Assembly (NCBI GenBank): GCA_020629545.1
Contig: JAHDDC010000005.1
Span: forward strand, 3,661 to 67,660
Length of the DNA: 64,000 bases
Reading direction: 5' to 3'
Origin: Hellea sp.
Lineage (GTDB): Bacteria > Pseudomonadota > Alphaproteobacteria > Caulobacterales > Maricaulaceae
The translations under genes were made by a program, and so were the position numbers. Numbering within the stretch: the stretch's first letter is position 1; every line of letters starts with the position of its first letter. The notes under the pieces were generated by a model, which saw only the letters and a list, made by a program, of their open reading frames with translations, did not search any database and was not told the origin of the DNA. This document shows positions 3,031 to 35,829 of the stretch, piece by piece.

Positions 3031-3037
3031 AATAGGC

Positions 3038-5823: not shown

Positions 5824-5860
5824 GACATTCTCCTGCAATTTCTTAAAAAATAGCAGGTCG

Positions 5861-5890: not shown

Positions 5891-5923
5891 TTTCAGTCAT
5901 TTTGCCGATAAAAATAGGTATTT

Positions 5924-5952
5924 TGCGTAACAATTCTGAAATTTACTACGCT
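5924..5952. promoter_or_regulatory. TGCGTA-N17-TACGCT variant site (A2), 33 bp from site A
   Basis: The sequence is TGCGTAacaattctgaaatttacTACGCT. It overlaps the stop codon of the ligase gene. Confidence 0.5.
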
Positions 5953-7457
5953 TTTAGCATAAACTTCATTACCTTCCCCGAAGCATTACGCGGCAATGAA
6001 TCGTGGAAGATGATTGATCTTGGCACTTTGTAATTAGCCATATTATCCCGGCACCATTTAATGATAGCGTCAGCATCAAGCGCCCCAGTTTTCACAATAT
6101 GAGCCTGTGTAACTTCACCGAGCCTCTCATCGGCAATACCAACAACCGCAACATCGGCTATATTGTCGTGCTGCAACAGCATTTTCTCAAGTTCTGCAGG
6201 ATAGCAATTAAACCCCCCAACTATGACCATGTCTTTCTTTCGGTCTGTAACTTTAATATATCCATTCAAATCCTGAGTCCCGATATCACCAGTCTTAAGC
6301 CAACCATCACTCGTAATCGTTTCAGCGGTCGCAGACGGGTTATCAAGATAGCCCTGCATAACATTAAATCCGCGCACCCAAATCTCGCCTTGCTCACCTG
6401 AAGGAACGTTCTTGCCTTCATCATCTACAATACGAAGCTCTGTCCCCGGGAGCGGACGTCCACATGTTGTCGCAATAGTCGCAAAATCGTCCCCTTTTCG
6501 GCACAGACTAACGACGCCCGACGACTCTGTAAGGCCGTAGGCGGAGTACACATCATCAATTCCCAAATCCTCACTCATGGCGCAGATCAAATCTACTGGG
6601 ATGGTCGTCGCCCCCGTTGTCGCAACTCTGAGTGAGGAGATATCGTGTTCTCCAAGGTCCGGATGCGCCAATAAAGCTTGAAAGATAGTCGGCGCGCCGG
6701 GCATAACCGATATTTTGTCTGTTTCAATTTGTATCAAGACAGCTTTGGGGTCAAAAACTGCCAACGGAAAGATCGCCGCCCCGACCACCAAACAAGCTAG
6801 CCAACCGGCCTTGTATCCAAAACTATGGAAGAATGGATTTACCACCAGATACCGATCATCCCCATTCATTCCGATGGCAGATGTGAAAGCTTCAAACACT
6901 TTGACGTTTTGGCCATGAGTTGTCATGGCGCCTTTAGGCGCGCCTGTTGTACCCGATGTAAAGATGATGTCAGACACGTCATCAGCGTCCGCATTGATTT
7001 CCGATACAATATCATTGTTATTTATAAATTCCTCAAAAGCATCCGTATTCTGATTGTCTTTGAGTAAAACGATATCTTTCAATTCCGGGAGGGCCTGACC
7101 ATCTAGCATGGATGGATAGTCATGCCCCAAAAAGCCTTTGACTGTGAACAATAGTTTGCTTTGAGATCGGCGTAAGATATCGGCGGCTTCCATCCCTTTA
7201 TATCGTGTATTTAACGTCACAAGAATGGCTCCGAGCATCTGCCCAGCCAGGGCCGCCACAATCCATTCTGCGCAATTTGGCGCCCAGATCGCAAATTTAT
7301 CGCCCTTAGAAATTCCCTTCGCCTGCATAGCACCGGCAGTGCGTTGCACGTCAGACTTCAACCGGGAGAAACTATAAGTCGCCTCACCGTCCTGAATTGC
7401 AAGAGCATCTGGTCTTTTTTCAGCCTGCCTAAAAAGCAATCCCGGGATAGTTGTCAT
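5946..7457 (-). CDS. AMP-dependent acyl-CoA synthetase (FadD3/HIP-CoA ligase-like)
   Basis: It carries the adenylation motif FTSGTTGAPKG, then YGLTE and a C-terminal GK. Its 503 aa and its position next to hsaA are as seen for FadD3. The specific substrate is an inference. Confidence 0.8.
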   Translation of the reverse strand: MTTIPGLLFRQAEKRPDALAIQDGEATYSFSRLKSDVQRTAGAMQAKGISKGDKFAIWAPNCAEWIVAALAGQMLGAILVTLNTRYKGMEAADILRRSQSKLLFTVKGFLGHDYPSMLDGQALPELKDIVLLKDNQNTDAFEEFINNNDIVSEINADADDVSDIIFTSGTTGAPKGAMTTHGQNVKVFEAFTSAIGMNGDDRYLVVNPFFHSFGYKAGWLACLVVGAAIFPLAVFDPKAVLIQIETDKISVMPGAPTIFQALLAHPDLGEHDISSLRVATTGATTIPVDLICAMSEDLGIDDVYSAYGLTESSGVVSLCRKGDDFATIATTCGRPLPGTELRIVDDEGKNVPSGEQGEIWVRGFNVMQGYLDNPSATAETITSDGWLKTGDIGTQDLNGYIKVTDRKKDMVIVGGFNCYPAELEKMLLQHDNIADVAVVGIADERLGEVTQAHIVKTGALDADAIIKWCRDNMANYKVPRSIIFHDSLPRNASGKVMKFMLKA

Positions 7458-7512: not shown

Positions 7513-7542
7513 TGCGCAACATAAGGACTAAAATAATACGCA
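7513..7542. promoter_or_regulatory. TGCGCA-N18-TACGCA inverted repeat (site F), ligase/SDR divergent region
   Basis: The sequence is TGCGCAacataaggactaaaataaTACGCA. An extra TACGCA half-site lies at 7474-7479, 33 bp to the left. Confidence 0.7.
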
Positions 7543-13484: not shown

Positions 13485-13488
13485 TTAA

Positions 13489-21191: not shown

Positions 21192-21221
21192 TGCGCAATA
21201 TTTTCTTGGATTTACTACGCT
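21192..21221. promoter_or_regulatory. TGCGCA-N18-TACGCT inverted repeat (site B), SDR/KstD-like divergent region
   Basis: The sequence is TGCGCAatattttcttggatttacTACGCT. Confidence 0.65.
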
Positions 21222-21291: not shown

Positions 21292-22992
21292 ATGACTCCA
21301 CAAGACGAACATTGGTATACGAACGTAGAACCTGTCCACAAAATCGATAATATCAACGCCATAGAATGGGATGTCGAAGCTGATGTTGTTGTCGTCGGTT
21401 TGGGCGGCGCAGGCGTCGCTTGTGCTCTCCAATCGCTGGAACTTGGTAACTCAGTGATTGCGATCGATAAGTTTGAAGGCGGTGGCGCCACCAAAGCCAG
21501 CGGCGGAGTTATCTATGCCGGCGGCGGAACATCGATTCAGAAGGCTGCAGGCGTCGAAGACACGCCAGAGAATATGTTCAATTATCTTAAGATGGAAATC
21601 GGTGAAATTGTCTCCGATACGTGCTTGCAAGAGTTTTGCGATCAAAGCGCTGAGACTGTTGAGTGGATGATCGGACATAATGTTGATATGCGGCCGACCC
21701 TTTGGCCCAAGAAAACTTCTTTTCCGGGGCCAACATTTTTTCTATATCACTCCGATAATAGCCTAATTCCGACTTACAAGGCCAATGCCGAACCGGCGGC
21801 GCGAGGCCATCGGGGCTATGCGCCACTAGAACAAAGCAAAAAGGCAACCAATTTAGGCGGCGCATTTTATCACCCCCTTAAAGACAAGGCGCTCGATATG
21901 GGCATGAGGTTTTTTGACTACCATGAAGCGCGGCAACTCATAACCGATAGTTCGGGGCGAGTAGTCGGATTAAAAGTGCTGCGGTTTGCAAATTCTGATT
22001 CCAAAAACAAATATCTCGACCTTCGCGCGAAAGCTCACAAGCTCATGGTGCGATTCCCTGCTATAATTCCGGGTGCAAAATTTTTCCTCAAGCGCGCTAT
22101 TAAAATGTTGGCGCAAGCGTCTAAACTTGAGACGGCGCGTGAGGCCGTTTTTATCAAAGCTCACAAAGGTGTTCTGTTATCATCGGGCGGATTCGTTTTT
22201 AACTCCAAAATGTTGAAACATTACGCGCCCAAATATACTCGGGCTTATCCATTAGGAACCGATGGAGACAATGGGGCTGGCATTCGTCTGGGACAGACCG
22301 CCGGCGGGGCTGTGGCCAATATGGACCGAATGACCGCCTGGCGGTTTATCAATCCGCCGCTTTCATTTGCAAAAGGAATGATCGTCAATCTCTCGGGAAA
22401 ACGATTTACAAATGAAATGGTTTACGGCGCCACACTTGGCGTGAATATGGTAGAAAACCATGACGGCGAAGCGTGGATGATCATGGACAAGGCTATTCTC
22501 AATAAGGCCTTAGAGGAAGTTGAGGGTGACAAGGCCCTGGATTTCCAAAGACAACTTGCCCAACTCAATGCCCGCTTTGGAACAAAAAAAGCCAAAACAT
22601 TAGCGCAACTCGCTCACAAAATCGGTATTCCTTCTCAAGCTTTAGGGGCCGAAGTCGCAGCGTATAATAGTTTTGCGAAATCCGGCAAAGATCCCTTTGG
22701 AAAGGCTGCTGACGATATATCCACAATTGGAATAGCACCATTTATCGCAATCAATATTGGACTATCAGCGAAACTGTTCCCTTGCCCTGCCTTAACGCTT
22801 GGTGGCTTGAAAGTCGATGAGTCGAGTGGTGCTGTACTGGATGATCGCAATAAATCCATAGGCGGGCTTTATGCTGCGGGTCGCAATGCAATTGGAGTCG
22901 CATCTTGGAATTATGTCAGCGGATTATCAATTGCCGATGGAATCTATTCTGGTCGGCGTGCCGCCCGATCAATGGCGAAGTCAAAAGCCTAA
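21292..22992 (+). CDS. FAD-dependent 3-ketosteroid dehydrogenase-like flavoprotein (KstD/TesH/TesI family)
   Basis: It has the dinucleotide fold DVVVVGLGGAGVACAL plus GGATKASGG. Its 566 aa fits the fumarate-reductase-like flavoprotein layout. Confidence 0.7.
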   Translation: MTPQDEHWYTNVEPVHKIDNINAIEWDVEADVVVVGLGGAGVACALQSLELGNSVIAIDKFEGGGATKASGGVIYAGGGTSIQKAAGVEDTPENMFNYLKMEIGEIVSDTCLQEFCDQSAETVEWMIGHNVDMRPTLWPKKTSFPGPTFFLYHSDNSLIPTYKANAEPAARGHRGYAPLEQSKKATNLGGAFYHPLKDKALDMGMRFFDYHEARQLITDSSGRVVGLKVLRFANSDSKNKYLDLRAKAHKLMVRFPAIIPGAKFFLKRAIKMLAQASKLETAREAVFIKAHKGVLLSSGGFVFNSKMLKHYAPKYTRAYPLGTDGDNGAGIRLGQTAGGAVANMDRMTAWRFINPPLSFAKGMIVNLSGKRFTNEMVYGATLGVNMVENHDGEAWMIMDKAILNKALEEVEGDKALDFQRQLAQLNARFGTKKAKTLAQLAHKIGIPSQALGAEVAAYNSFAKSGKDPFGKAADDISTIGIAPFIAINIGLSAKLFPCPALTLGGLKVDESSGAVLDDRNKSIGGLYAAGRNAIGVASWNYVSGLSIADGIYSGRRAARSMAKSKA

Positions 22993-23456
22993 GGTACGAT
23001 AATTTTCGCAAGACGATTATTATATTTAATCACGTCTACGGCAACCGTCGTTTCGACAAGCCTAACGCCTTCCAGATCCAGGATTTGATTGCTGGCGACA
23101 CGATGAACTTCCGGGAGCCCCTCGAATAGCCCGATAGCAAGAATATCAAACCGGCCCAATAAGATAATGACGCCGTTTATTTCCGGTATTTTCGCAACAT
23201 TCTTAGCAACCTTTTTGATCTGTCCTTGTTCGGCGTGTATCCCAATATAGGCTAGTTGTGGACGATCCAAATGCGCCATATTTGTGACGGCCGTAAAACG
23301 AATGTAGTTCTCTTCTTCAAGACGTTTAACCCTCGAACGTATAGTGCCCTCAGTGTAACCGAGTTCGGTCGCAATCTTACGATTAGATAGTCTGGCATCA
23401 CCAGATAAAAGCTCGATAATTTCCCGATCGAGATCGTCAATATTGTAATCATTCAT
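22989..23456 (-). CDS. Lrp/AsnC-family transcriptional regulator (second of a tandem pair)
   Basis: It has an N-terminal HTH (LDREIIELLSGDARLSNRKIATELGYTEGTIRSRVKRL) followed by a RAM-like domain. Its ATG overlaps the stop of the upstream paralog (TGATG). Confidence 0.85.
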   Translation of the reverse strand: MNDYNIDDLDREIIELLSGDARLSNRKIATELGYTEGTIRSRVKRLEEENYIRFTAVTNMAHLDRPQLAYIGIHAEQGQIKKVAKNVAKIPEINGVIILLGRFDILAIGLFEGLPEVHRVASNQILDLEGVRLVETTVAVDVIKYNNRLAKIIVP

Positions 23457-23917
23457 CAGATCGGTGCCACGTCAAAATCGAACTTGATTATATCGACCGC
23501 AAACGAAGGATCGATACTCCTAACGCCCTTAACTTTGGACAGTTTCTCAAGAAGAAAATCACTCATATTTTCTAGGCTAGGTAAAGTCACAAGAATTTCA
23601 ATATCGTGCTTCCCACTGACTAATTGTACGCTAGCGACCTCTTCCAAGCCGGCCAAATCTTGCGCAACATCATTTGCACGACGTCCCTTTACGTCTACGC
23701 CGATCGGAAGCAGGACATCATAATTGTAGGCTGAAAAGTCAGACACAGCGACAATTTTCATTGCCTGTGCTTTTTCCATTTTTCGAATTCGGGAGGCGAT
23801 GACGGTTGTCGTCACATCCAACAATTCCGCAATACGATGATTACTCGTCCTGCCGTCCTGTTTGAGAATTTCAATTATTTTCAAATCGATATCTGAAAAC
23901 TCATATGACACAGTCAT
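23456..23917 (-). CDS. Lrp/AsnC-family transcriptional regulator (first of a tandem pair)
   Basis: It has an HTH (LKIIEILKQDGRTSNHRIAELLDVTTTVIASRIRKM) followed by a RAM-like domain. Confidence 0.85.
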   Translation of the reverse strand: MTVSYEFSDIDLKIIEILKQDGRTSNHRIAELLDVTTTVIASRIRKMEKAQAMKIVAVSDFSAYNYDVLLPIGVDVKGRRANDVAQDLAGLEEVASVQLVSGKHDIEILVTLPSLENMSDFLLEKLSKVKGVRSIDPSFAVDIIKFDFDVAPI

Positions 23918-23975: not shown

Positions 23976-24009
23976 AGTGCGTAATTCTACCCCCTCAAAA
24001 ATACGCACT
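23976..24009. promoter_or_regulatory. AGTGCGTA-N18-TACGCACT inverted repeat (site C), upstream of the AsnC pair
   Basis: It has perfect 8-bp arms. It lies 59-92 nt upstream of the ATG at 23917. Confidence 0.7.
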
Positions 24010-24054: not shown

Positions 24055-25959
24055 CTATGGCTGCACCCAAATAGCAGATGTCCATAAACGATCTTGAACC
24101 GTCGCTTTCATATCCGGATTTGGCGGGGTACCGTTTCGTACCGCGTCCCATGTACTCCAGCGACATTTTGGATTTTCTATAACCCGTGCATAATATGCAA
24201 CGCGCTGTCCGGGCTTGTAGCTAGGGTCTTTCCAGATCGCTTTCAAGTCCGCTGATCCTGTTTCATCATTCGTTTTACAATTACTTAAATCCACACTTGC
24301 GCCATTGTCTGGACAACGATGGCTTGCCGCGTCAGGTTCTGCACCGCCAGCACACGCAATATCGAAAATCGCTTCTTTATAGTCCCCTCCATCTGCCCAA
24401 ACTTTTATCACCTGAACGCGTTGTAATGGGTAACCAGCAGGATCTTTCATAGCCCAAACAATAAAATCCGGAGATTCCGTATCACCATTAATCGTACTTC
24501 CCATTGGGGAGCCTCCTGCATAGGCCTGTTCGACCATATCCGTCGATTCTAAAATAGATGGATTGTAATCGCCTGCAAAAAACCGTGCTTTAAGCCGTGG
24601 GCCGGACGTCGCGAAAGTTTCCTTACGCCGCATCCCATCAAAGATATGCTCGCGCGTATTTGCTTCAGCCCATACCCCTGCGAGGCCAGAAGCCCCATAT
24701 TGCGAAGATGCGATAAACGCCAAAGCTTCCTGTGTTTGTTTTTCACCCCATTCTTTGGCGCCATCCGGTGGAACAGAACCCCGGTTTTCCAAAGTCGTAT
24801 CATGAGGAAATTTTCCAAAATGTTCTTTCTCTGACAATGAAGGCGCGCTGACATGAGTATCTGACGCTCCAATAAAGCCAAACTCATAAGGATTAGCACC
24901 CAATTTTTCCTCAAACTCCAACCCACGAGCCAATGATTGTCTTACAAAACTACCTGGGACCTTTTGGGCTTCTTCTGGCATACCGATCAGAATTTCATAA
25001 AGCTCATGATCGGCAAGCTCATCTTCAGGTGATAATAATGGATGGGTTTCCGATGTACCTTTAACTTGTGTCATTTCAACTATAGGCTCATTAAGCATAC
25101 GGTTCTTAGCATAGCTTTCTGTAAACGCTGATCCATCGGTCGTGGTCATGGCAAACATTTGCCCGTTTGAGCCATTTGAATTGTGCGGAATAGCGATTAC
25201 ATCCATCCCATTCGCACGAGTATCATTCATCCAGCTCCAAAGATCTTCGGGGTTAGTTGAGTTCAAAGTTGAAAATAGACGGGTCGGGGCTTTGTCTTTG
25301 AAGACAACGTTCCGGTGGAGATTGGTTGCGCCAAGATTGTCATCGATCTCGCCAATAATATTCATTTGAGTATATTCATAGGCCGCGAAAGTCGTAAATT
25401 TACCTGGCTCATAGTGCTTTTCAGCGGCATTTACATTGAATGCCCAGGCGCTGTCGATAAATTCAAGATCATAGATATCTTCAATCTCCTCGCCCGTAAC
25501 AATGGTTGTCCCAATATCCATAAAGGCCTGCATACGAGCATCGGTCCCGCCCCCGAGAAGACCAAATATTGATTTCCCCGTTTTTGTTTTCGTGAGCGGG
25601 TCCTTGCTTGTCCGAGCATCCATAGCAGCAATCACGCCCATATATTCTCCGTGATCGGTTACACCATAAAAATCCAGAGGAGGTCCCGAAATCGAGATTG
25701 CCTCACCCGCGCCATTATCAATGGTTTCACCTTTAGCAAATCGGTATGCATCATCGGCGGTTGTTCGGGTTCCCGTTATATAAGCATCAAATGAGTTTTT
25801 TGTATGAACATGTAAATCACCGAAATAGGCGTTCTTTAGCGGGTTTTCAGTGATCTCGATTGACGGACGATCCGGATACTCGACGGTGTATATGGTTCGC
25901 TCTGTTTTGTTACACGCGGAAAGTGCAATCAAAGATGTGCAAATGATCAGTTTTTTCAT
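24055..25959 (-). CDS. Exported DUF3604-family protein (PHP-like metal-hydrolase motifs), lipoprotein
   Basis: I set the start to ATG 25959 (MKKLIICTSLIALSAC lipobox), preceded by GAGGGGG. Motifs are GDLHVHT, GVTDHGE, IPHNSN, GASDTH and ATSGPR. The longer ORF overlaps the upstream crotonase. Confidence 0.7.
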   Translation of the reverse strand: MKKLIICTSLIALSACNKTERTIYTVEYPDRPSIEITENPLKNAYFGDLHVHTKNSFDAYITGTRTTADDAYRFAKGETIDNGAGEAISISGPPLDFYGVTDHGEYMGVIAAMDARTSKDPLTKTKTGKSIFGLLGGGTDARMQAFMDIGTTIVTGEEIEDIYDLEFIDSAWAFNVNAAEKHYEPGKFTTFAAYEYTQMNIIGEIDDNLGATNLHRNVVFKDKAPTRLFSTLNSTNPEDLWSWMNDTRANGMDVIAIPHNSNGSNGQMFAMTTTDGSAFTESYAKNRMLNEPIVEMTQVKGTSETHPLLSPEDELADHELYEILIGMPEEAQKVPGSFVRQSLARGLEFEEKLGANPYEFGFIGASDTHVSAPSLSEKEHFGKFPHDTTLENRGSVPPDGAKEWGEKQTQEALAFIASSQYGASGLAGVWAEANTREHIFDGMRRKETFATSGPRLKARFFAGDYNPSILESTDMVEQAYAGGSPMGSTINGDTESPDFIVWAMKDPAGYPLQRVQVIKVWADGGDYKEAIFDIACAGGAEPDAASHRCPDNGASVDLSNCKTNDETGSADLKAIWKDPSYKPGQRVAYYARVIENPKCRWSTWDAVRNGTPPNPDMKATVQDRLWTSAIWVQP

Positions 25960-25972
25960 AGTATTCCCCCTC

Positions 25973-26791
25973 TTAGCGCCCTTTCCATACAGGCTTTCTT
26001 TTTTCGACAAAGGCATTAATGCCCTCCATTGCGTCTTCGCTCTCACGCCAGCGCGCGAATTCCGGATAACTTTCTTGAAGATCCTGAGCGGTTTTCAAAT
26101 CGACCTCGTCAAGACCCCGCAAGACTGTAGCCTTGGACGCCTGCACGGATATTGGCGCTCCTTTTAGGATATCATCACAATAGCCATCAACAACTGACTC
26201 AAGACTTTCAGGTGCTACAACCTCATTCACAAAGCCTAGCCGGTATCCTTCGGCTGCAGTCACGCTTCGGGATGTCAATATCATCCCCATGGCTTGTTTC
26301 AAGCCTATCTGGCGCGGGAGTCTATGCAGCCCCCCTCCCAGCGCAACGGCTCCGACTTTTGGCTCAGGTAATCCAAAAGTCGCAGTTTCAGACGCTATGA
26401 TCATGTCACAAGCCAGCGCAAGCTCAAATCCTCCGCCCAGTGCAAAACCGTTGACCATAGCGATGACTGGCTTGGCGAGATCAAATCGATTGGCAATGCC
26501 CGCATATCCGCCCTGTGGATAGGCATTACCAAGCCCTGACTTAAGATCGCTTCCGGCGCAAAAGGCTTTGGGCCCTGTCCCTGTTACAACGCAGATCAAT
26601 TGCGTCTCATCGGCTGTGAAATTATCAAATGCTTTATCCAGTGCTGCATGCATATCCGGGGTCAGCGTGTTAAGCTGATCCGGACGATTAAGAGTAATCC
26701 GGGTAACGGGCCCTATGCGTGATATGACTATCTCAGACAAACTAACCCGTTTTTTTATCGATTTTGAGTTTGGTAATATTTTTTCCGCCAT
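25973..26791 (-). CDS. Enoyl-CoA hydratase/isomerase family
   Basis: It has ITLNRPDQLNTL and GPKAFCAGSDLK. The start is uncertain. ATG 26791 overlaps the Rieske gene end by 50 nt, and a TTG just after the Rieske stop is the alternative. Confidence 0.75.
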   Translation of the reverse strand: MAEKILPNSKSIKKRVSLSEIVISRIGPVTRITLNRPDQLNTLTPDMHAALDKAFDNFTADETQLICVVTGTGPKAFCAGSDLKSGLGNAYPQGGYAGIANRFDLAKPVIAMVNGFALGGGFELALACDMIIASETATFGLPEPKVGAVALGGGLHRLPRQIGLKQAMGMILTSRSVTAAEGYRLGFVNEVVAPESLESVVDGYCDDILKGAPISVQASKATVLRGLDEVDLKTAQDLQESYPEFARWRESEDAMEGINAFVEKRKPVWKGR

Positions 26792-27845
26792 CTTCCCATT
26801 CGGCATAGAACTGCGCAAAAAACTTGCGAAATGGCAGGATAGGTCCATCTCCATCACAAATACTGGGTTTGGGTTTATACTTTTGACGGTCCCAAACCAC
26901 CTTGTCCTGATCCAGCTGCCGACAGATTTCACGTTTCATAGCCTTTGCGAGATTTGCCATAGGACCTTCGGCTTCTGACTTTGGCTGTGTAAATGCGAAA
27001 CGAATATGGGTTCGTCCTTGGTCTATTGGAGTAATACCCGCGATCATGAGTGTTTCGGAAATGCCAGAAAACTTGGTCCAGCTTTGCCCAGCTCCGACAG
27101 TCCCATAAGCAATAGTGCCGTCAACTTCGCCCTTAGGGGTCGGCATTTTGGCGTCGACACTTGCAGAACGTCTATGGCCATCAAATTCGAAATCATAGTC
27201 CGGAAAATTCGCCGTTCCATGAATATATTTAAAGTGAGCCGCATCAACACCGTTCTCCGCCATGTTCTGAACAGGGCCGTGGACGATCCATTCATATTTA
27301 TCATAATCCGTCCAATCAGGATCATGAACTTGATCGAAACTGTCAGGCTCCCATTTTGGAGCCTCGCCAAATGGGTGATACCAAACTAGTATCTGCTTGT
27401 TTACCTCAGACACAGGCCATTGAATTTTGCATTCACGGGCCGCAGATGGGGGTATTTTTTTGGCATAAGGCACATGGGTAACAGCGCCACTTCCATTATA
27501 TTCCCAGGCATGAAATGGACATTCGAGCGCGTTTCCATTTACGCGGCCACCATACCCCATATGCGCGCCCAAATGCTTGCAGTAAGCATCTATCACCCGC
27601 GGCTTGCCATCGTTGCCGCGCCATAGAACCAGTTCTTGCCCGAAATAATGAATGGGAAGAACTTGTCCTAGTTCAAGTTCGTCGGAATATGCCACCATGA
27701 ACCAGCCAAACGGTAAAGGAAGTGTGTCGAGATTGCGGTCGGAATTGCTAACCTCAGTCTTAATGCTGGACATTCTCCAATCTCTAAGGTCATCGCCCTT
27801 TAAACCGGAAAGTTGTGCCCAAACTGCAACCGACTCATCTGCCAT
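26742..27845 (-). CDS. Rieske [2Fe-2S] non-heme-iron oxygenase, KshA-like
   Basis: It has the Rieske motif CKHLGAH...CPFHAW. It is a single large alpha subunit of about 367 aa with no beta subunit. The ATG overlaps the upstream stop (TAATG). Confidence 0.8.
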   Translation of the reverse strand: MADESVAVWAQLSGLKGDDLRDWRMSSIKTEVSNSDRNLDTLPLPFGWFMVAYSDELELGQVLPIHYFGQELVLWRGNDGKPRVIDAYCKHLGAHMGYGGRVNGNALECPFHAWEYNGSGAVTHVPYAKKIPPSAARECKIQWPVSEVNKQILVWYHPFGEAPKWEPDSFDQVHDPDWTDYDKYEWIVHGPVQNMAENGVDAAHFKYIHGTANFPDYDFEFDGHRRSASVDAKMPTPKGEVDGTIAYGTVGAGQSWTKFSGISETLMIAGITPIDQGRTHIRFAFTQPKSEAEGPMANLAKAMKREICRQLDQDKVVWDRQKYKPKPSICDGDGPILPFRKFFAQFYAEWEDGGKNITKLKIDKKTG

Positions 27846-28723
27846 TACTCTTCTCCTAAACTAAAAACACGCATAGCGTTTTCCCGAAGGAATTTGGGCC
27901 AAACGTCAGCTTTGAAAGGGACATCATCCATATCTTTAAAAATGCGGTCGAGGCTAAGACCCATGGGGAAATATCCCGCATAAATAATCTTATCTGATCC
28001 CCGGCTATTCGCATAATCTATGATGGATTTGGGATAATGTTTAGGCGCGAAAGCCGAGGTCGAGTAATAAAGATTTGGATACTTTAGCATCAGTTTAACC
28101 GCTAGATCTTCCCAAGGCTCTGCGCCATGACGCATAACGACTTTAAGATCTGGAAAGAACCAACAAACCTCGTCCAAATGCTCGACCTTTTGTGTGTGCA
28201 TTGGAATTCGCGGGCCCGGCACACCAACATTGAGGCAAATCGGAATATCAAGCTCTATGCAACACGCATAAAGCGGATACATACGGGCATCATTAATAGC
28301 GACCTGAGGAACCGTACCAGCTGGGAAAACACTTACCGACTTAATCCCATATTCTGCATGTAGCCTTTTAACTCGTCGAACCTCTTCCATTCCGTTACCA
28401 GGATTACACGGCAAATCAAAAAAGAAACGGTCTCCAAAGTCTTTGGCAGCGCGCTCCGAAGTCGGGTCCTCGTTAAACCCGACCATTGCCTTATGGATAT
28501 TATGCTTATCCATTTGTTCAACTGTCCATTTAACAAAGTCTGATACGTCAGCTGTGTTTTCAGGAATATCTTTAAACATATACTGCGCGGGCATCTTAAA
28601 CATGTCGCGACTTTGCTGATCATTTAGCAAAGGTTTGAAACTATTATACCAACCAGAACGATCAGCATGAGTGGGAATTCCCATCATGCAATCAATAATC
28701 CCTACGTCTTTTGGATAGCTCAC
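27845..28723 (-). CDS. Amidohydrolase_2 (TIM-barrel, ACMSD/LigW-like) family protein with atypical metal-ligand positions
   Basis: The N-terminus GIIDCMMGIP sits where the family usually has ID.H.H. A conserved HGAEPW is present. The GTG start overlaps the upstream stop (GTGA). Confidence 0.6.
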   Translation of the reverse strand: MSYPKDVGIIDCMMGIPTHADRSGWYNSFKPLLNDQQSRDMFKMPAQYMFKDIPENTADVSDFVKWTVEQMDKHNIHKAMVGFNEDPTSERAAKDFGDRFFFDLPCNPGNGMEEVRRVKRLHAEYGIKSVSVFPAGTVPQVAINDARMYPLYACCIELDIPICLNVGVPGPRIPMHTQKVEHLDEVCWFFPDLKVVMRHGAEPWEDLAVKLMLKYPNLYYSTSAFAPKHYPKSIIDYANSRGSDKIIYAGYFPMGLSLDRIFKDMDDVPFKADVWPKFLRENAMRVFSLGEE

Positions 28724-30363
28724 CTTGAGATTCCCTGTGCTTTCAAATACATATCTCGAACCTTTTTCTTCTCGACCTTGCCCATCGCATTGAGCCCAAA
28801 TGGTTCGGTCAGGATCATGAAGTCAGTTGGCACTTTATAAGATGCCATGTTTTCGTTTGAAAATGCGGTGAGTTCACCTTCATCTACAGGGCTTGATATT
28901 TCCACAGCTGCTACTAGGCGTTCCCCCATTCGCTCATCATCTACCCCAAATGTCGTTACAGTCTTAATCGCGGGATGTGTTCCCAAAATTTGCTCAACCT
29001 CAGCACAGTAAATGTTTTCGCCGCCTGAGATCACCATATCTGTCTTGCGGTCAACAATGTATATGTAACCTTGCTTATCGACCTTACCGATATCACCGGT
29101 TTTGTACCAACCGTCCGAGAAGGACTTCTGGGTATCTTCAGGGCGGCCATAATAGCCGTTCATGAGTGTTGCACCTTTTGCCCAAATCTCGCCAATTTCG
29201 CCCGTTGCAACTGAGCTACCATGATCATCAACTATCTTCACATCTGTCATTGGCAAAATGATACCGGAGGCCTTCGGATTGACTAAAAATGCTTCTCCAT
29301 TGGCTTGAGATATTGCGCCGCTCATTTCGGTCATCCCGTACCCAGCCCCAATAAAAACTTTCGGGAAAAGGCGCCTCATTTCAGACAGCAAATTTAATGG
29401 GAGCGCGGTGCCTCCGCATGATAAAGCCATCAAGCTTGATAAATCGCGGCTCTCAATACCGGGTGACCCGAACATATCCCAATACATAGCAGGAACCCCA
29501 CCAAATGTAGATACTCGTTCCTTTTCAATTAGTTCCAATGCTTTGCTGCCATCCCAATTTCCCATAAGCACGAGTTTTCCGCCCATGGAAAGTGTTGTCA
29601 GAAATACTGCACTGCACCCTGACGTATGAAATAGCGGAAAGGCCAGAAGCGAACAACTTTGCGGCATTTGTTTGCGTAGCGTTTCTACATCTATGCCATA
29701 TCCTGCGGCCATTTTTTGAAACACTGCAGCCATTGCCATTTGCGTATTCATCATTCCATGGATCAAAGCCCTGTGAGATAGTTCAGCCGCTTTCGCTGTA
29801 CCGGTAGTTCCGCTTGTAAACATCATCGCAGCGGCGTCTTCTGAGTGACGCGCCGGGCCTTCATAAGACATAGCCTTGGTTGGTAGTTCAGAAGCTTTCA
29901 ATATCGGAGTTTCACAACCTGAATCTGTTAGTTTTACAGCGCGTTTTTCATCCGCCAAAATGATCACGCAATCCGTATCTTCAATCGCCCTCGACATTGC
30001 TTGACCAGACCCACGGCTATTAACCAAAACCGCAACGCCCCCAGCTAGGATTATCCCAACAAAACCGATCATCCATTCCGGTGAGTTTTGCATACAAATG
30101 CCAATTGACGATCCAGGCGCAATATCACAGTCGTGGATTAAGTGCGCAGCCAGGGCATCAGCTCTTTCAAAAAAAGCCTGATAGGTTAGGCGCTCATCAC
30201 CTGAGACAATAAATTCATCATCAGCAAAAGCCCTTGCACGATTGAGAACATCCGCCATGTTCTGAGCCGCGTGCTTAAATACTCGTATGTTACCTTGCTT
30301 CACGACTTCAAAAGGCGCGCCTGGTGACATCAAAGCTGATATTATAGGATCGTTCATCGCCAT
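28720..30363 (-). CDS. AMP-dependent acyl-CoA synthetase
   Basis: It has FTSGTTGTAKA, YGMTE and a C-terminal GKV. The ATG overlaps the MFS stop (TGATG). Confidence 0.85.
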   Translation of the reverse strand: MAMNDPIISALMSPGAPFEVVKQGNIRVFKHAAQNMADVLNRARAFADDEFIVSGDERLTYQAFFERADALAAHLIHDCDIAPGSSIGICMQNSPEWMIGFVGIILAGGVAVLVNSRGSGQAMSRAIEDTDCVIILADEKRAVKLTDSGCETPILKASELPTKAMSYEGPARHSEDAAAMMFTSGTTGTAKAAELSHRALIHGMMNTQMAMAAVFQKMAAGYGIDVETLRKQMPQSCSLLAFPLFHTSGCSAVFLTTLSMGGKLVLMGNWDGSKALELIEKERVSTFGGVPAMYWDMFGSPGIESRDLSSLMALSCGGTALPLNLLSEMRRLFPKVFIGAGYGMTEMSGAISQANGEAFLVNPKASGIILPMTDVKIVDDHGSSVATGEIGEIWAKGATLMNGYYGRPEDTQKSFSDGWYKTGDIGKVDKQGYIYIVDRKTDMVISGGENIYCAEVEQILGTHPAIKTVTTFGVDDERMGERLVAAVEISSPVDEGELTAFSNENMASYKVPTDFMILTEPFGLNAMGKVEKKKVRDMYLKAQGISR

Positions 30364-31661
30364 CAGATGGGACCAGCCTTTAGGATTAAGCGATCTTCAT
30401 CCGCCGACTTTCCTGCTTTATTGATAAAATATGCCGCCGGAATACCTGCGAGCAATGTCAACGCCATGGAATAGCGGATAGACTGCCCGCCATATTGCGC
30501 ATTCAAAAAGTCATTAATTGCCCCTACGACCTGCACACCCAATACGAGGCCTGAGAAAGTCAATGCGAAGGCCCAAATTGACGTAGCGGTTGCGCGTAGC
30601 TCTGCCGGTAATACATCTTGGAGAGCCGCTTGAACCGCGACGACCCACCCGGCACCCAATAGGCTGGCGGGATAAACCAATGCCGTAGCATGCGCTACGT
30701 CTTTAACAAAACACATCGCAATTGAAATCAGTGTAAATCCGAAAAGACCATAAGCTGAAAATTTATAAGGCGCTCGTACATCTTTTTTGGAATACTGGTC
30801 ACATAAAAATCCCATCAGTAATACGCCAGCCATACCGGCCAAGAAAGCGGCGCCTCCATACCTAGCCCCGGCAGATTGATTGGAAATCTCGAATATGCGT
30901 TCAAACAAAGCGATCGCCCAAGTCCCAAAAGCAATGGTTGAAAATCCTCCGAGGAATGCCGCAATCGTCAAATATTTAAATGTTGGTCGGCTCCACAGAG
31001 CTTTGAAAGTTTCACCCAATGGGGCCGTTGATTTATGCGGTGTAGTATCACCGTCAAGGCGCCCTCGCTCTGGCTCCCGAACGATCATCAATGTCAGCAG
31101 GGCAAGCACGATACCGGGTGCACCGAGCCAAAGAAAGGTTGACTGCCAATCATAAGATGCAGCGAGGCTTGTTCCGCCTATATTGCCAAATGCCCCGCCT
31201 AAATATACGCCAAGGTTCATAATCGCAAAAGCCAATGCGCGCTTTTTAGGCGGGAAATAATCCGATAAAAGCGAATAAGCGGGAGCCAAGAATGCCGCCT
31301 CCCCTATACCGACCCCAAACCGCGATATAGCAAAAATCTCCGGCGTTCTGGCCAAACCCGACAGCATTGTAAATAAACTCCAGACAAGACACCCCGCGGC
31401 AATGATATGAACTCTATTTTTACGATCAGCCAAACGCGCTATCGGAATTGCGGCTAGGCAATAAATGAAAGCAAAAGCTGGGCCGATAACAAAACCCATA
31501 TAGGTGTCCGAGACCTGATAGCTCTCCTTGATTTTTTCTAGCAGTGCATTTGCCAAAGTTCGATCAGCGTAATTAATGAAGTATAGCAAGACCATCATGC
31601 CCAGAACAATCCATGCGTAACCACGTCGTCTTGTCATCTGAATGTGTTGCGAGTCTTCCAT
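30363..31661 (-). CDS. MFS transporter
   Basis: The 432-aa protein has 12-helix-type hydrophobicity. The start is ATG 31661. No SD is visible, and the operator arm ends 1 nt upstream. Confidence 0.8.
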   Translation of the reverse strand: MEDSQHIQMTRRRGYAWIVLGMMVLLYFINYADRTLANALLEKIKESYQVSDTYMGFVIGPAFAFIYCLAAIPIARLADRKNRVHIIAAGCLVWSLFTMLSGLARTPEIFAISRFGVGIGEAAFLAPAYSLLSDYFPPKKRALAFAIMNLGVYLGGAFGNIGGTSLAASYDWQSTFLWLGAPGIVLALLTLMIVREPERGRLDGDTTPHKSTAPLGETFKALWSRPTFKYLTIAAFLGGFSTIAFGTWAIALFERIFEISNQSAGARYGGAAFLAGMAGVLLMGFLCDQYSKKDVRAPYKFSAYGLFGFTLISIAMCFVKDVAHATALVYPASLLGAGWVVAVQAALQDVLPAELRATATSIWAFALTFSGLVLGVQVVGAINDFLNAQYGGQSIRYSMALTLLAGIPAAYFINKAGKSADEDRLILKAGPI

Positions 31662-31662
31662 C

Positions 31663-31692
31663 TGCGTAGTTTTAGCAGGCTTTAACTACGCA
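31663..31692. promoter_or_regulatory. TGCGTAGTT-N12-AACTACGCA inverted repeat (site D; 6-bp cores spaced by 18), MFS/OYE divergent region
   Basis: It has perfect 9-bp arms. The left arm ends 1 nt from the MFS ATG (31661). Confidence 0.7.
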
Positions 31693-31745
31693 TTTAAAGG
31701 ACTTTTCAGACATAAATATCAATTTCCATCAATATTTTTCCATAT

Positions 31746-31756
31746 TTTTGCGCAAA
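31746..31756. promoter_or_regulatory. TTTTGCGCAAA near-palindrome upstream of the OYE gene
   Basis: It lies 42 nt upstream of ATG 31798. The core TTTGCGCAAA is a perfect 10-bp palindrome. Confidence 0.4.
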
Positions 31757-31797
31757 CCCCATAGCAGCCTTACCTGCATTCTGCTAAATCTGACTTT

Positions 31798-33033
31798 ATG
31801 AACACTACATCCAAAGCCTTTCGCCCACTCACCATCGGACCACTGAAACTCCGAAACCGGTTTATCAAAGCTGCCACAAATGAAGGGATGTGCAAAAATG
31901 GAGTGATCTCTAAAGGTCTAGCCCGGTTTCATGAAAACATTGCCAAAGGCGGCGCAGCCATGTCAACCGTCGCTTATTGCGCAACATCTAAAGACGGTCA
32001 GACCTTTGTTGACCAAGCTCATTTATCTTCAGATACCATTGCTGACTTCAAAGTTTTGACAGATGGGGTCCATAAACACGGCGCCGCCGCACAAGCTCAG
32101 ATAACACATGCAGGCTCGTTCACCTTTTTGCCTAAAGACTTTTCGACTGCAAAACCCATTTCAGCTATGGGCGGTTTCAATAAATTCGGAGTTATGACCG
32201 GACGCTATACGAAAAAGAAAATGGACCGGGCGGATATGGATGACGTCGCGGATCAATTTGTGCGCGCCGCTCTCCATGCCAAAGAAGCGGGATTTGACGC
32301 TGTCGAAATTCATATGGGTCACGGCTATTTACTCGCGCAATTCATCACACCTTTTTACAATACTCGAAAAGACGAATATGGCGGATCAATTGAAAACCGG
32401 ATGAGGTTCCCGGCAGAAGTCCTGTCAAAAGTTCTAGATGCTGTCGGAAAGGATATGGCCGTTACAGTAAAATATAGTCAAACAGACGGTAAGGCCGGCG
32501 GGAACACGATTACTGAAGGCATTGAAATTGCAAAGATTCTTGAAAAGACTGGGGCGCATATGGCGCAACTATCCAACGGTCTAAATGTTGAGTCGATATC
32601 AGCAATGTTTGGCAACCCCCTGCCTGCCACATCAGCCCCGCCTAAGAATTTGATCGTTCGTCTTGGCATGTTAATGCAGAAAAAAAGTAAAGAACCGGAT
32701 CGCGAATTCAGTCAACTTTATTCTATGGAGCCAGCTCAAAAAATCCGCGCCGCTGTCAATATGCCTCTCTGCTATCTGGGAGGCGTTCAATCGATGGAAA
32801 ACATCGAAGATGTAATGCATAATGGATTTGACGCGTTGGGCCTAGGGCGGGCTCTAATATTTGATCCAAATCTAATCAATGATCTGCAAAGCGGCGCGCA
32901 ATCTGAAACAGCCTGCACAGCTTGTAATCAATGCGTTTTACTAATGTACACGCCCGGAGGTACGGCCTGTGTTGATCCGAATGGCATGCGGGGGCACGCC
33001 AGCAATCTGAATACCCAGCGTGCCTCAAGCTAG
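31798..33033 (+). CDS. Old-yellow-enzyme-family FMN oxidoreductase with C-terminal 4Fe-4S motif (FadH/BaiCD N-terminal-half-like), short form
   Basis: It has OYE TIM-barrel motifs (RFIKAATNEGM, EIHMGHGYLLAQF) and C-x2-C-x2-C-x11-C (CTACNQC...C) near the C-terminus. There is no FAD/NAD(P)H domain. Confidence 0.75.
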   Translation: MNTTSKAFRPLTIGPLKLRNRFIKAATNEGMCKNGVISKGLARFHENIAKGGAAMSTVAYCATSKDGQTFVDQAHLSSDTIADFKVLTDGVHKHGAAAQAQITHAGSFTFLPKDFSTAKPISAMGGFNKFGVMTGRYTKKKMDRADMDDVADQFVRAALHAKEAGFDAVEIHMGHGYLLAQFITPFYNTRKDEYGGSIENRMRFPAEVLSKVLDAVGKDMAVTVKYSQTDGKAGGNTITEGIEIAKILEKTGAHMAQLSNGLNVESISAMFGNPLPATSAPPKNLIVRLGMLMQKKSKEPDREFSQLYSMEPAQKIRAAVNMPLCYLGGVQSMENIEDVMHNGFDALGLGRALIFDPNLINDLQSGAQSETACTACNQCVLLMYTPGGTACVDPNGMRGHASNLNTQRASS

Positions 33034-33090
33034 AACATTCAATCGTGTTATATCAGGCTGTCCAACCAGAATAGAAATATAGGACGGCAT

Positions 33091-35151
33091 ATGCGCAGAT
33101 TTATTTTGGTTTTTGCGGTTTTAATAGCAACCCTGGCAGGCCTTTACGCTGGTTTGTCACAAATAACCCATCATTCTATCGATAAGTCTTATGAACTCTT
33201 ACCGCTTTCGTCGGAAAAATCCGAACCAGAGATCTATGATTATGGCTATCAGCCAGAACTGATCTATACCGAAACGCGCGCGCCCTGCCTCGAACAATAT
33301 TCGACCAAGAAAGCCATGTGGGGTGACCTGCACATTCATACGGCTTTATCCGCTGACGCATTTCCGGACGGAACACGAACCTACCCAAAAGACGTCTACA
33401 ATTTTGCCAAAGGCAATGAAATTCCAATCCCAACCTCAGAAGGAATGCCTCAGCGAATGCTTCGTCTTGATCGTCCGCTTGATTTCGCAGCTGTAACTGA
33501 TCACGCAGAGACTTTCGGTGAAGGTTATATCTGCCGCACGCCAGGCGCGTTCCAAGGCTTTAACAGCAAATCTTGTCAAATATTCCGGGCCGGAGGCGAA
33601 AGCGGTGTCAGTGAACTCATGCGGATGAATTCACTGGTTTCGCCTAAACGCAAGACTAGTGTGTGCGGAGAAAATAATGTGGACTGCAAAGCTGCGGAAG
33701 CGCTTGTTTGGAAGCAAGTGATTGACGCGGCCGAAAATGCCTATGATAGATCTGCGGATTGCGAGTTCACTAGCTTTATTGGGTATGAATATACCCGGGC
33801 GCCCAATGCCCAGCATATGCACCGTAATACCATATTCAGAAACGCCGATGTTCCCGAAACCCCGTTCCATCATGTTACTCACCCCCTGTCCCATCTATTA
33901 CTGGGTGCATTTGAAAAAGAATGTAGGGTCGGCCTTGAAAAATGCGACGTTATTTCCATTCCTCATAACTCTAATATTTCCGGAGGCAATGCTTTTAACC
34001 CTGATGATATCAAAGGGTTTTCGATGGAAACCCAGATGAACTATCGCGCCCATCGAAATGCCTTTGATAGATTAGCCGAGATTGTCCAGCACAAAGGCGC
34101 ATCTGAATGTATCAATGGAGCCACTGATATACTCGGTGATATAGACGAGCTTTGTGATATAGAAGCGCTCAGGCAGTTTGGAAAAATCGAACAGGCTGTT
34201 GACACAACAACAAAGTTGCCAGCCATTTTTAAGTCAACTAGCCCGGAATGTGCGGATGAACATTTAGACGCTAAAGACAATATTTATAAGGGTTTTTGCT
34301 TGTCTTCCCGCGACTTTGCTCGGGGCGCATTGTTGGAAGGCATGAGTCAAGAAAAGCTGGGTCAAGTCAATCCTTTTGAATTTGGTTTTATCGGTAGCAC
34401 TGACACACATATCTCCGTATCGGGCTATGTAGAAGAAGATGGTTGGGAGGGCCATATCGCTTATGAAGCTGACCTTGATGGCCGGTTAGGTACGGCAAGT
34501 CTTGGACGCTTCAACCGACTAGTTAGTAACCCAGGCGGTCTGGCTGGTGTTTATGCCATCGAAAACTCCCGAGATGCCATTTTTCAAAGCATGAAACGCC
34601 GGGAAGCCTTTGCGACATCTGGGCCGAGAATAGAACCGCGTTTCTTTGCGGGGCAATTTGATGAAAATATATGTGACCAAGCCAATTGGCTAGAATCCGC
34701 TTATGCTTTTGGCACGCCCATGGGCTCTAAACTTCCAGCCGAAAAAGGTCGGGTGCAGCTTCTGGCTCAGGCTAGTGCTGATCCGGGGTCCCGCACTCTT
34801 GAGAAACTTCAAATCATAAAGGGTTGGCTTGGTGCCGAAGGACATAAACACTCAAAGGTCATAGACGTCGCAAAGTCTGATGGGAGTGATAGTTTGTGCA
34901 CTGTCTACGAGGACCCTGATTATGATCCTAATTTGCCGACCTATTACTACCTTCGTGCGGTCGAACCTGAGCGCCCTAGATGGAGCGCTGCACAATGCGC
35001 AGCTGTCCCTGCCGATAAACGGCCGGAAGGGTGTACAAATGATATGCCGGAGACCATCCGCGAAATGGCTTGGAGCTCACCAATTTGGTTCACTCCGGGC
35101 CTTATGCCAGCCTTACAGACAGAGTCAGAGGGGCATGGGCATCAAGAGTAA
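33091..35151 (+). CDS. Exported/anchored DUF3604-family protein (PHP-like motifs), paralog of 24055-25959
   Basis: It has an N-terminal hydrophobic anchor. Motifs are GDLHIHT, AVTDHAE, IPHNSN, GSTDTH and ATSGPR, collinear with the paralog. Confidence 0.7.
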   Translation: MRRFILVFAVLIATLAGLYAGLSQITHHSIDKSYELLPLSSEKSEPEIYDYGYQPELIYTETRAPCLEQYSTKKAMWGDLHIHTALSADAFPDGTRTYPKDVYNFAKGNEIPIPTSEGMPQRMLRLDRPLDFAAVTDHAETFGEGYICRTPGAFQGFNSKSCQIFRAGGESGVSELMRMNSLVSPKRKTSVCGENNVDCKAAEALVWKQVIDAAENAYDRSADCEFTSFIGYEYTRAPNAQHMHRNTIFRNADVPETPFHHVTHPLSHLLLGAFEKECRVGLEKCDVISIPHNSNISGGNAFNPDDIKGFSMETQMNYRAHRNAFDRLAEIVQHKGASECINGATDILGDIDELCDIEALRQFGKIEQAVDTTTKLPAIFKSTSPECADEHLDAKDNIYKGFCLSSRDFARGALLEGMSQEKLGQVNPFEFGFIGSTDTHISVSGYVEEDGWEGHIAYEADLDGRLGTASLGRFNRLVSNPGGLAGVYAIENSRDAIFQSMKRREAFATSGPRIEPRFFAGQFDENICDQANWLESAYAFGTPMGSKLPAEKGRVQLLAQASADPGSRTLEKLQIIKGWLGAEGHKHSKVIDVAKSDGSDSLCTVYEDPDYDPNLPTYYYLRAVEPERPRWSAAQCAAVPADKRPEGCTNDMPETIREMAWSSPIWFTPGLMPALQTESEGHGHQE

Positions 35152-35235: not shown

Positions 35236-35829
35236 GTGAAATTTGACAATCCGCATATGAGCGAGCAATCGCCGCGTATGGGAAATGGGTTAACCCGTGC
35301 ATTCGGATCACTAGGCCTGAAGCTTACGGGTTGGGAGCTAATCGGGCGCATGCCTGATGTGCCAAAATTCGTCATAATTGGTGTGCCGCACACATCCAAT
35401 TGGGACGCAATTTCTGCATCGCTAGCTATGCTTGCAAGCGGATTCAAATACACATTTCTGATTAAAAAGGAATGGTTCTTCTGGCCCATGGGACCGATTT
35501 TCCGCGCGCTCGGAGGATACCCGGTTGATCGTAGTAAAGGCAAAAATGTTGTCGAGCAACTCGTCGCTTATTTTGACTCAGAAGAAAAAGTCTGCGTTGG
35601 TTTCCCGCCAGAAGGCACACGTTCAAAAGTAGACAAATATAAAACCGGTTATCTACGCGCTGCTTATGCCGCCAATGTTCCCGTATTTATCTGTGCCTTT
35701 GACGGGCCCAATAAGAAAGTTGTATTGGATCGCCTCTTTCCGCTGACAGGAGACTTGGAAACCGATAACGCTGCTATCAAAAAATATGTCGACGAAACCT
35801 GGTCCGGTGTCAGACCAGAACGTCAATAA
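35236..35829 (+). CDS. PlsC-type acyltransferase (lysophospholipid acyltransferase family)
   Basis: It has the HX4D motif (HTSNWD) and a PEGTRS block. The start is uncertain: GTG 35236, ATG 35257 or ATG 35278. Confidence 0.65.
   Translation: MKFDNPHMSEQSPRMGNGLTRAFGSLGLKLTGWELIGRMPDVPKFVIIGVPHTSNWDAISASLAMLASGFKYTFLIKKEWFFWPMGPIFRALGGYPVDRSKGKNVVEQLVAYFDSEEKVCVGFPPEGTRSKVDKYKTGYLRAAYAANVPVFICAFDGPNKKVVLDRLFPLTGDLETDNAAIKKYVDETWSGVRPERQ

Follow-up and report, generated by a model that had tools for sequence, protein, structure and literature searches.

What do two exported proteins of an uncharacterized family do in a bacterial gene island for the catabolism of steroid-like compounds? The question is raised by a 64,000-nucleotide stretch of DNA from Hellea sp. 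(contig JAHDDC010000005.1; hereafter, the window), which contains two genes of the Pfam family PF12228, DUF3604-A (24055..25959, minus strand) and DUF3604-B (33091..35151, plus strand). DUF3604 is a very large exported family, with no characterized member and almost no literature: searches of about 8.3 million papers for "DUF3604", "PF12228" and "IPR022028" retrieved a single one that mentions the family, in which CT_425 of Chlamydia trachomatis, annotated as DUF3604, appears incidentally as a transposon mutant. This agrees with the preliminary description of the window, which knew of no function for the family, noted a resemblance to the metal sites of PHP-type phosphoesterases and proposed that the two proteins process a substrate before its import. 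We find that DUF3604-A and DUF3604-B are very probably exported metallohydrolases of the PHP fold; the best explanation of the locus as a whole, which we favor only tentatively, is that they are trinuclear-metal (phospho)esterases processing a substrate before it is imported by a major facilitator superfamily (MFS) transporter.

The two DUF3604 proteins

DUF3604-A, of 634 amino acids, matches nearly the entire PF12228 profile (positions 2-591 of 591; 669.5 bits, E = 5.5e-201, cut-off 20.4), and DUF3604-B, of 686 amino acids, matches it in two stretches (456.8 bits, E = 1.4e-136, same cut-off). Both are further members of a family that is already known as an uncharacterized Pfam entry. As proposed in the preliminary description, the two proteins are collinear paralogs, with 29% identity between residues 10-634 of A and 36-669 of B (BLASTP, E = 3e-67); tblastn of both against the window recovered two copies in total and no third. 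All the motif blocks listed in that description are readable in the translations: GDLHVHT in A and GDLHIHT in B, GVTDHGE and AVTDHAE, LHRN and MHRN, EFGFIGASDTH and EFGFIGSTDTH, IWVQP and IWFTP, as well as YEYT, IPHNSN and GLAGV...ATSGPR...RFFAG in both proteins. The last motif of the series, IW[VF].P, had been taken to end both chains; it is present in each, but B runs 17 residues past IWFTP, into a His-rich tail (EGHGHQE).

The translation of DUF3604-A begins with a charged n-region and a hydrophobic h-region followed by a classical lipobox, MKKLIICTSLIALSAC (LSAC, by pattern reading [LVI][ASTVI][GAS]C), with Asn at position +2; the ATG at 25959 is backed as the start by a Shine-Dalgarno sequence upstream of it. 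DUF3604-B has one N-terminal hydrophobic helix, an anchor or signal, without a lipobox, and this feature is kept in its orthologs. Going by these N-termini, A is predicted to be exported as a lipoprotein and B to be membrane-anchored or secreted. DUF3604-B contains 16 Cys residues, which suggests disulfide bonds. No NCBIfam model matches either protein, an exact-sequence lookup of protein A returned no record, and neither protein matches Sulfatase (PF00884) or the combination of Lactamase_B and Alkyl_sulf_dimr.

The preliminary description spoke of a duplicated hydrolase. This does not hold, inasmuch as A and B, about 30% identical, represent two old subfamilies, Cys-poor and Cys-rich, respectively (median Cys content 5 in A-like and 19 in B-like members, among 151 DUF3604 genes in the loci fetched for comparison, which are designated below by L numbers). 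Recent duplication is ruled out because each subfamily has its own orthologs, 50-88% identical, in many taxa; those of B, in the same range of identity, come from Alpha- and Gammaproteobacteria. Several other genomes hold two DUF3604 copies side by side. The best protein matches of A and B, with up to 88% identity, are from Hellea and other Hyphomonadaceae, and DNA of the locus is found in sequencing runs labeled "algae metagenome". More broadly, members of the family are known from soil Acidobacteria as well as from marine oligotrophs (SAR86, Halieaceae, Porticoccaceae, Hyphomonadaceae).

Fold and candidate metal site

An AlphaFold2 (AF2) model of full-length DUF3604-A, built from 62 sequences, reached a predicted local distance difference test (pLDDT) score of 85.6 and a predicted TM-score (pTM) of 0.89, and consists of an N-terminal alpha/beta catalytic domain (approximately residues 40-480) and a C-terminal beta-sandwich. 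When the domain was modeled separately (residues 38-482; pLDDT 79, pTM 0.86) and compared with the PDB, the seven top matches were all PHP-fold proteins, all others having a probability of 0.1 or less. These matches include BVU_3505 (3E38; E = 1.7e-4, probability 1.00), TM0559 (2ANU; probability 0.99), the PHP domain of Pol III alpha and endonuclease Q (EndoQ). Cropping to the catalytic domain was necessary for the PHP signal to emerge from the fold search.

Nine candidate metal ligands (H50, H52, D58, H103, E195, H215, H259, D367 and H369, in A numbering) are invariant in the 62-sequence alignment, which covers both subfamilies, and are 98-100% conserved among 114 representatives that are 29-52% identical to A. 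In the AF2 model, they fall at or just after successive predicted strands, and they appear in the PHP-type order, namely HxH, D six residues on, H, E, H, H and DxH. This order and the HxH-x5-D spacing are those of the trinuclear site of YcdX and histidinol-phosphate phosphatase. A PHP site of nine ligands is described in PMC5460133.

Ten further charged or polar residues (R216, E295, Q298, K300, D313, R340, R436, E447, R455 and R459) are nearly invariant; judging from the alignment, the Arg, Lys and other charged positions among them would suit an anionic ester substrate. The barrel of DUF3604 is about twice the usual PHP size, strand 2 being followed by a helical insertion of approximately 85 residues and strand 6 by long loops. 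The PHP-like reading of the metal site put forward in the preliminary description is supported because the fold search and the conservation of the nine ligands point the same way, and the predicted domain structure is compatible with a PHP fold; the model thus supports a resemblance that is real and unsurprising. From these features we infer the metal content and the hydrolytic chemistry of A and B.

A shared operator and a predicted regulon

The two DUF3604 operons diverge from the intergenic region between the MFS transporter and an old yellow enzyme (OYE) flavoprotein, which carries a palindromic operator, site D (31663..31692), abutting the MFS start codon. Site D is a perfect TGCGTA-N18-TACGCA element and reads as a perfect TGCGTAGTT-N12-AACTACGCA palindrome. 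Allowing up to one mismatch, TGCGTA-N18-TACGCA occurs at five sites in the window compared with 0.09 expected, a count reached in none of 100 shuffles, and all five sites are intergenic. A second perfect operator (23978..24007) lies between the DUF3604-A stop codon and a pair of Lrp/AsnC regulator genes, and another (60514..60543) is located upstream of the TonB-dependent receptor and SnoaL_4 genes; operator-like sites are found upstream of hsaA (5861..5890) and between fadD3 and a short-chain dehydrogenase/reductase (SDR) gene (7513..7542), and a weaker one at 21192..21221.

Orthologous intergenic sites are present in five Hellea-lineage loci (L001, L004, L005, L006 and L087) and also in L088, against a background of 25 matches in the remaining 2.46 Mb of fetched loci. 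In particular, site D is kept in the orthologous OYE/MFS intergenic region of L001, L005, L006 and L087, and the 23978-24007 operator in L001, L005 and L087. Site D had been described as shared by the divergent operons, and this is supported; the palindrome is also present before hsaA and fadD3 and is conserved in other Hellea-lineage genomes. Based on these sites, both DUF3604 operons and the core steroid genes are predicted to form one regulon, and the shared, conserved operator is the best substitute at hand for expression data. The adjacent AsnC genes (22989..23917, minus strand), located downstream of DUF3604-A throughout the Hellea lineage, are the obvious candidate regulator and a candidate operator binder.

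A second inverted repeat, TTTAGCAG/CTGCTAAA, which spans the divergent intergenic region, was dropped as a candidate operator given that it is not repeated elsewhere.

The steroid-type island and the two operons

The designation of the window as a steroid-type island is correct because it combines the hsa/fadD3 set with KshA-like, KstD-type, OYE and P450 genes. Specifically, hsaC, hsaF, hsaG, hsaE, hsaD, hsaA and fadD3 (152..7457, minus strand; Pfam and NCBIfam) encode steroid ring A/B degradation enzymes and HIP-CoA ligase. FadD3 scores above its NCBIfam equivalog cut-off (675.6 bits, cut-off 657); for HsaA and HsaD, the top NCBIfam match is the Hsa equivalog, yet below the cut-off, and for HsaC it comes second, behind biphenyl-2,3-diol 1,2-dioxygenase, and is also below the cut-off. 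Elsewhere, the window encodes a KstD-type flavoprotein and a P450, two each of KshA-like Rieske oxygenases and OYE proteins, and several SDRs and CoA-transferases. In agreement with these assignments, steroid-catabolism gene matches have been assigned to Hellea in sponge metagenomes (PMC5790920).

The minus-strand operon starts with the MFS transporter gene (30363..31661; MFS_1, E = 7e-48), followed by genes for an acyl-CoA ligase (28720..30363), an Amidohydro_2 enzyme (27845..28723), the first of the two KshA-like Rieske oxygenases (26742..27845; Rieske plus KshA_C) and an enoyl-CoA hydratase of the crotonase family (ECH; 25973..26741; ECH_1, E = 8e-56), and continues into DUF3604-A. These genes are tightly coupled, as previously described: MFS and ligase share one base, ligase and Amidohydro_2 overlap by 4 nucleotides (nt), Amidohydro_2 and Rieske share one base, the TTG start of ECH comes directly after the Rieske stop codon, and 13 nt separate ECH from DUF3604-A. 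The nearest named NCBIfam equivalog of the ligase is the steroid-24-oyl-CoA synthetase CasG, at 341.6 bits, below the cut-off of 750; the Amidohydro_2 enzyme is the best-conserved protein of the module, with 72-87% identity in related loci. On the plus strand, DUF3604-B follows, after 57 nt, the OYE gene (31798..33033), whose product ends in CxxCxxC...C and lacks the NADPH/FAD C-terminal domains, consistent with the OYE/4Fe-4S neighbor of the preliminary description.

The two genes were said to terminate their operons. They are indeed the distal genes of the divergent operons as defined here, but genes on the same strand follow both: the AsnC pair lies 137 nt beyond DUF3604-A, with the operator in between, and a PlsC-type acyltransferase gene (35236..35829, plus strand) lies 84 nt downstream of DUF3604-B and may belong to the same transcript. 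A scan for terminators after DUF3604-A and DUF3604-B found no site, in a scan that as a whole gave fewer sites than shuffled sequence.

The window also encodes an envelope route within one regulon, comprising a TonB-dependent receptor, exported hydrolases and the MFS transporter. The receptor belongs to a minus-strand operon (54626-60395) together with a formylglycine-type sulfatase (56013-57617, minus strand; Sulfatase PF00884) that is a lipoprotein (lipobox LASC) and an alkylsulfatase-type metallo-beta-lactamase with an alkylsulfatase dimerization domain (54626-56020, minus strand; Lactamase_B plus Alkyl_sulf_dimr). This operon is likely to serve the regulon as its arm for desulfation and for uptake across the outer membrane, and it suggests that sulfated sterols or lipids are among the substrates of the island.

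Three other hydrolase genes with export signals were observed in the window. One encodes a Y_phosphatase3 protein with an N-terminal hydrophobic anchor or signal (9993-10919, plus strand), in an MFS/ECH/flavin reductase/SDR operon beside the hsa genes; by its sequence, it is a putative second exported phosphoesterase. The others, which are part of the conserved module, encode a DUF885 protein whose lipobox is combined with a TAT-like signal (14653-16512, minus strand) and a DLH-family hydrolase with a lipobox (17310-18461, minus strand), the latter syntenic in L001 and L087. The island thus contains a set of envelope hydrolases, which supports the general idea of periplasmic substrate processing.

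Conserved gene neighborhoods

The arrangement ligase/Amidohydro_2/(KshA-like)/ECH/DUF3604-A/AsnC/AsnC, with OYE and MFS divergent, recurs in five Hellea-lineage loci, among them that of the type strain H. balneolensis DSM 19091 (L087), with DUF3604-A identity of 68-75%. The block is complete in L004 and L087; in L001, L005 and L006, at least one gene is missing or open reading frames (ORFs) are merged. In four of these loci, ECH immediately precedes DUF3604-A, and no separate ECH ORF was resolved in L006. In the B clade, DUF3604 is the last gene of a KshA-like/ECH/acyl-CoA dehydrogenase/DUF3604 operon in L168; in Microbulbifer (L002), its neighbors encode a CoA ligase, a pair of KstD-like flavoproteins and a beta-oxidation set; L088 contains OYE, Amidohydro_2, ligase and KstD-like genes; and in Parvibaculales, DUF3604 is accompanied by SnoaL, SDR and aldehyde dehydrogenase genes. 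DUF3604 is thus genuinely linked to the catabolism of alicyclic or steroid-like acids, but only in particular clades, where the linkage recurs.

A broader survey covered the 20-kb neighborhoods of 80 A-like loci from species-representative genomes and 80 B-like loci from metagenomes. The partners found most often were a membrane-anchored Rotamase_2 protein resembling peptidyl-prolyl isomerases (PPIase), which is present in 31 loci and almost always comes immediately after DUF3604, and a HupE/UreJ_2 metal permease, present in 28, both mostly beside A-like, Cys-poor members. These two proteins may act together in folding a periplasmic metalloenzyme and loading it with metal. The useful novelty of the present analysis lies in the predicted regulon link to steroid genes, the recurring association, in certain clades, with KshA-like/ECH/ligase modules and the PPIase/HupE partnership seen across the family.

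Proposed role and alternatives

From the location of the proteins and the logic of the operons, deconjugation before import can reasonably be inferred. In the scheme that we propose, a steroid-like, conjugated or esterified substrate would cross the outer membrane via the TonB-dependent receptor, the DUF3604 enzymes of the periplasm would then cleave off or open one of its anionic ester groups, and the MFS transporter would import the product, on which the acyl-CoA ligase, the Amidohydro_2 enzyme, the KshA-like oxygenase, ECH and OYE would act in the cytoplasm. The scissile bond in this scheme would most probably be that of a phosphate mono- or diester, the phosphoester being the default because, to our knowledge, all characterized PHP enzymes cleave phosphoesters. 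That A and B act on the substrate of the island before import is possible, with considerable uncertainty; that the bond cleaved is specifically a phosphoester of a steroid-like compound, as the analogy with PHP enzymes would have it, is rather doubtful.

If periplasmic processing of steroid conjugates is indeed the role of these proteins, they would supply a missing first step of marine steroid catabolism and a function for thousands of genes; if it is not, they are an ordinary DUF gene pair in a catabolic island. Either way, the locus gives DUF3604 its first testable substrate hypothesis and a convenient handle, that is, a defined predicted regulon with a recognizable operator, the same operon in the cultivable H. 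balneolensis and a few candidate substrates, namely bile-acid-like acids and conjugated sterols from algae or sponges.

Several observations weigh against the proposed role. At the level of the protein, the TM-scores of the domain matches are modest (0.35 by query length and 0.44-0.59 by target length), and the whole-protein fold search missed PHP, giving weak, generic matches to Ig-like sandwiches only. A permissive hmmscan (E up to 10) of DUF3604 proteins detected DUF3604 only and no PF02811, and phmmer and profile searches against PDB sequences found no match; the relationship to PHP is therefore placed at the level of fold and active site only. At the level of the pathway, we know of no abundant class of natural steroid phosphates that could serve as substrates, and the canonical sulfatases, the DLH lipoprotein and the Y_phosphatase3 protein of the island could themselves perform deconjugation. 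The sequencing runs that hold the locus include no RNA run. At the level of the family, the context of DUF3604 in the 160 loci is heterogeneous and mostly unrelated to steroids, with Rotamase_2 and HupE/UreJ_2 as the commonest partners and homologs of the window neighbors in only 2-8 loci per 80-locus set. Co-occurrence with hsa/ksh genes is accordingly absent family-wide (Hsa homologs in none of the 160 loci, KshA-like genes in 6 of the 160), but does occur within the Hellea lineage and at several loci of the B clade. Because of this heterogeneity, the core function of the family is best regarded as generic, and its role in the island as possibly accessory.

The main rival explanation builds on the same heterogeneity. 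DUF3604 could be a housekeeping periplasmic phosphoesterase that, for example, scavenges phosphate from organic phosphoesters or nucleotides, its place in the operons being an accident of Hellea-lineage gene order. With 11,754 clusters at 50% identity, the family is very large, and it is widespread; its neighbors across the surveyed loci are mostly not catabolic, the PPIase-like and HupE/UreJ partners resemble maturation factors rather than pathway enzymes, and phosphoester hydrolysis is, as far as is known, the activity of all characterized PHP enzymes (see PMC5460133). However, four of the five Hellea-lineage loci, with about 70% identity, retain the close spacing to ECH (a few tens of nt or overlap), both subfamilies are under one conserved operator with hsaA and fadD3, and the linkage to KshA-like/ECH/ligase genes arose independently in B-clade loci. 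Furthermore, the regions upstream of DUF3604 genes show no enrichment of Pho-box-like sites (0.070 per kb versus 0.056 per kb). We consider this explanation somewhat unlikely, while recognizing it as the principal competitor of pre-import processing.

A hydrolase acting on a non-phosphate ester in the metabolism of sulfated lipids or steroids is less likely, and indeed improbable. Here the PHP metal site would act on a sulfur-linked or mixed anhydride substrate, either a sulfate ester or PAPS, APS or PAP released in the envelope. This possibility is brought up by the sulfatase and the alkylsulfatase-type gene in the same regulon, by the FGE-sulfatase and Sulfotransfer_3 genes that adjoin the module in H. 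balneolensis, by sulfotransferase homologs in 8 of 170 loci, mostly steroid-type ones, and by L169, where DUF3604 is directly followed by CysD, CysNC and a sulfotransferase; in addition, some PHP enzymes hydrolyze pAp. Conversely, we know of no PHP-fold sulfatase, and PAPS metabolism is cytoplasmic, whereas DUF3604 proteins carry export signals. DUF3604 is not needed for sulfate removal because canonical sulfatases sit in the same regulon, making a second type unnecessary, and the presence of sulfatases in 12 of the 170 loci may represent no enrichment because such genes are common in marine genomes.

A non-catalytic or structural envelope protein, such as a chaperone or binder of hydrophobic substrates acting via the C-terminal beta-sandwich, is also less likely and, in fact, most improbable: the full-length model matches Ig-like sandwiches, including the lipid binders NPC2, UNC119 and RhoGDI, but weakly (E = 0.01-0.06), generically and without significance, and the near invariance of the nine ligands and some ten further charged residues is typical of an active enzyme. 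Weak and generic as they are, these full-length matches do not count as a sign of lipid binding.

Processing before import can also be extended into a bolder proposal, namely, that DUF3604 constitutes a new class of periplasmic trinuclear-metal esterases that strip anionic conjugates, of the phosphate type or, unexpectedly, of the sulfate type, from steroids or alicyclic lipids before uptake, with subfamilies differing in substrate range and the PPIase-like/HupE-UreJ pair loading the metal site; in this general form, it would be a long shot.

Comparison with known systems

Within PF12228, the length, the motifs and the exported nature of A and B are typical, whereas the steroid-island setting with a shared operator is specific to this lineage. 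With the PHP superfamily (YcdX, L-histidinol-phosphate phosphatase, 2ANU, 3E38 and Pol III alpha), DUF3604 shares the distorted (beta/alpha)7 barrel and the order and spacing of the nine ligands, and with 3E38, also the presence of a second domain. It differs from the superfamily in the larger barrel, the added C-terminal beta-sandwich and the lack of similarity at the level of hidden Markov models; moreover, most PHP enzymes are cytoplasmic, whereas DUF3604 proteins are predicted to be exported.

The closest precedent for PHP chemistry outside the cytoplasm is Sb-PDE of Sphingobium sp. TCM1, a secreted zinc phosphodiesterase of the PHP superfamily that acts on xenobiotic or organic phosphate diesters (PMC5460133). 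Like A and B, it is an exported alphaproteobacterial PHP-type enzyme with nine ligands, but it has 441 amino acids, matches PF02811 directly, lacks both the DUF3604 domain and the beta-sandwich, and is unrelated to steroid genes. For the physiological role, the precedent is Bsa (Nov2c227) of Sphingobium sp. Chol11, a secreted amidase that frees bile salts of their conjugate prior to uptake (bioRxiv 10.1101/2021.05.19.444901). The gene for this exported hydrolase belongs to a steroid side-chain cluster that also encodes a CoA ligase and a KshA-homologous Rieske oxygenase, and the pre-uptake deconjugation by Bsa is what we propose for DUF3604; in contrast, Bsa has the amidase signature fold, a TAT signal and a demonstrated substrate and activity, and is an amidase rather than a metallo-esterase.

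Other features of the window and of related loci

A second module (37125-42494, minus strand) comprises genes for an OYE, a leucine-carboxyl-methyltransferase-like protein, an SDR, the second KshA-like Rieske oxygenase and a P450; a TetR-family gene comes next. An Imm11 immunity-family gene (44229-44834, minus strand) appears out of place amid the catabolic island. An 802-amino-acid protein (50825-53233, minus strand) matches family III CoA-transferases in two stretches, the better one at approximately residues 420-680, and may, judging by these matches, be a fused or duplicated CoA-transferase.

Among the fetched loci, the gene order DUF3604-Rotamase_2-HupE/UreJ_2 was observed in L007, L015-L017, L019, L022-L026, L028, L033, L035, L037, L038, L042, L046, L053, L057, L061, L065, L075, L079, L083 and others. 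In five metagenome loci (L099, L105, L106, L108 and L109), an HMG-CoA reductase gene lies in the approximately 1.2 kb directly upstream of DUF3604, on the same strand. In L169, the genes directly downstream of DUF3604 (8001-14413) encode CysD, CysNC, Amdase and Sulfotransfer_5, and in H. balneolensis, the genes for the FGE-sulfatase and Sulfotransfer_3 that adjoin the module map to 13047-14036 and 19570-20895 of L087. Sulfotransfer_3 or Sulfotransfer_1 genes were also observed near DUF3604 in L003 (427-1584), L088 (2580-3752) and L170 (11232-13301), with four further loci in all.

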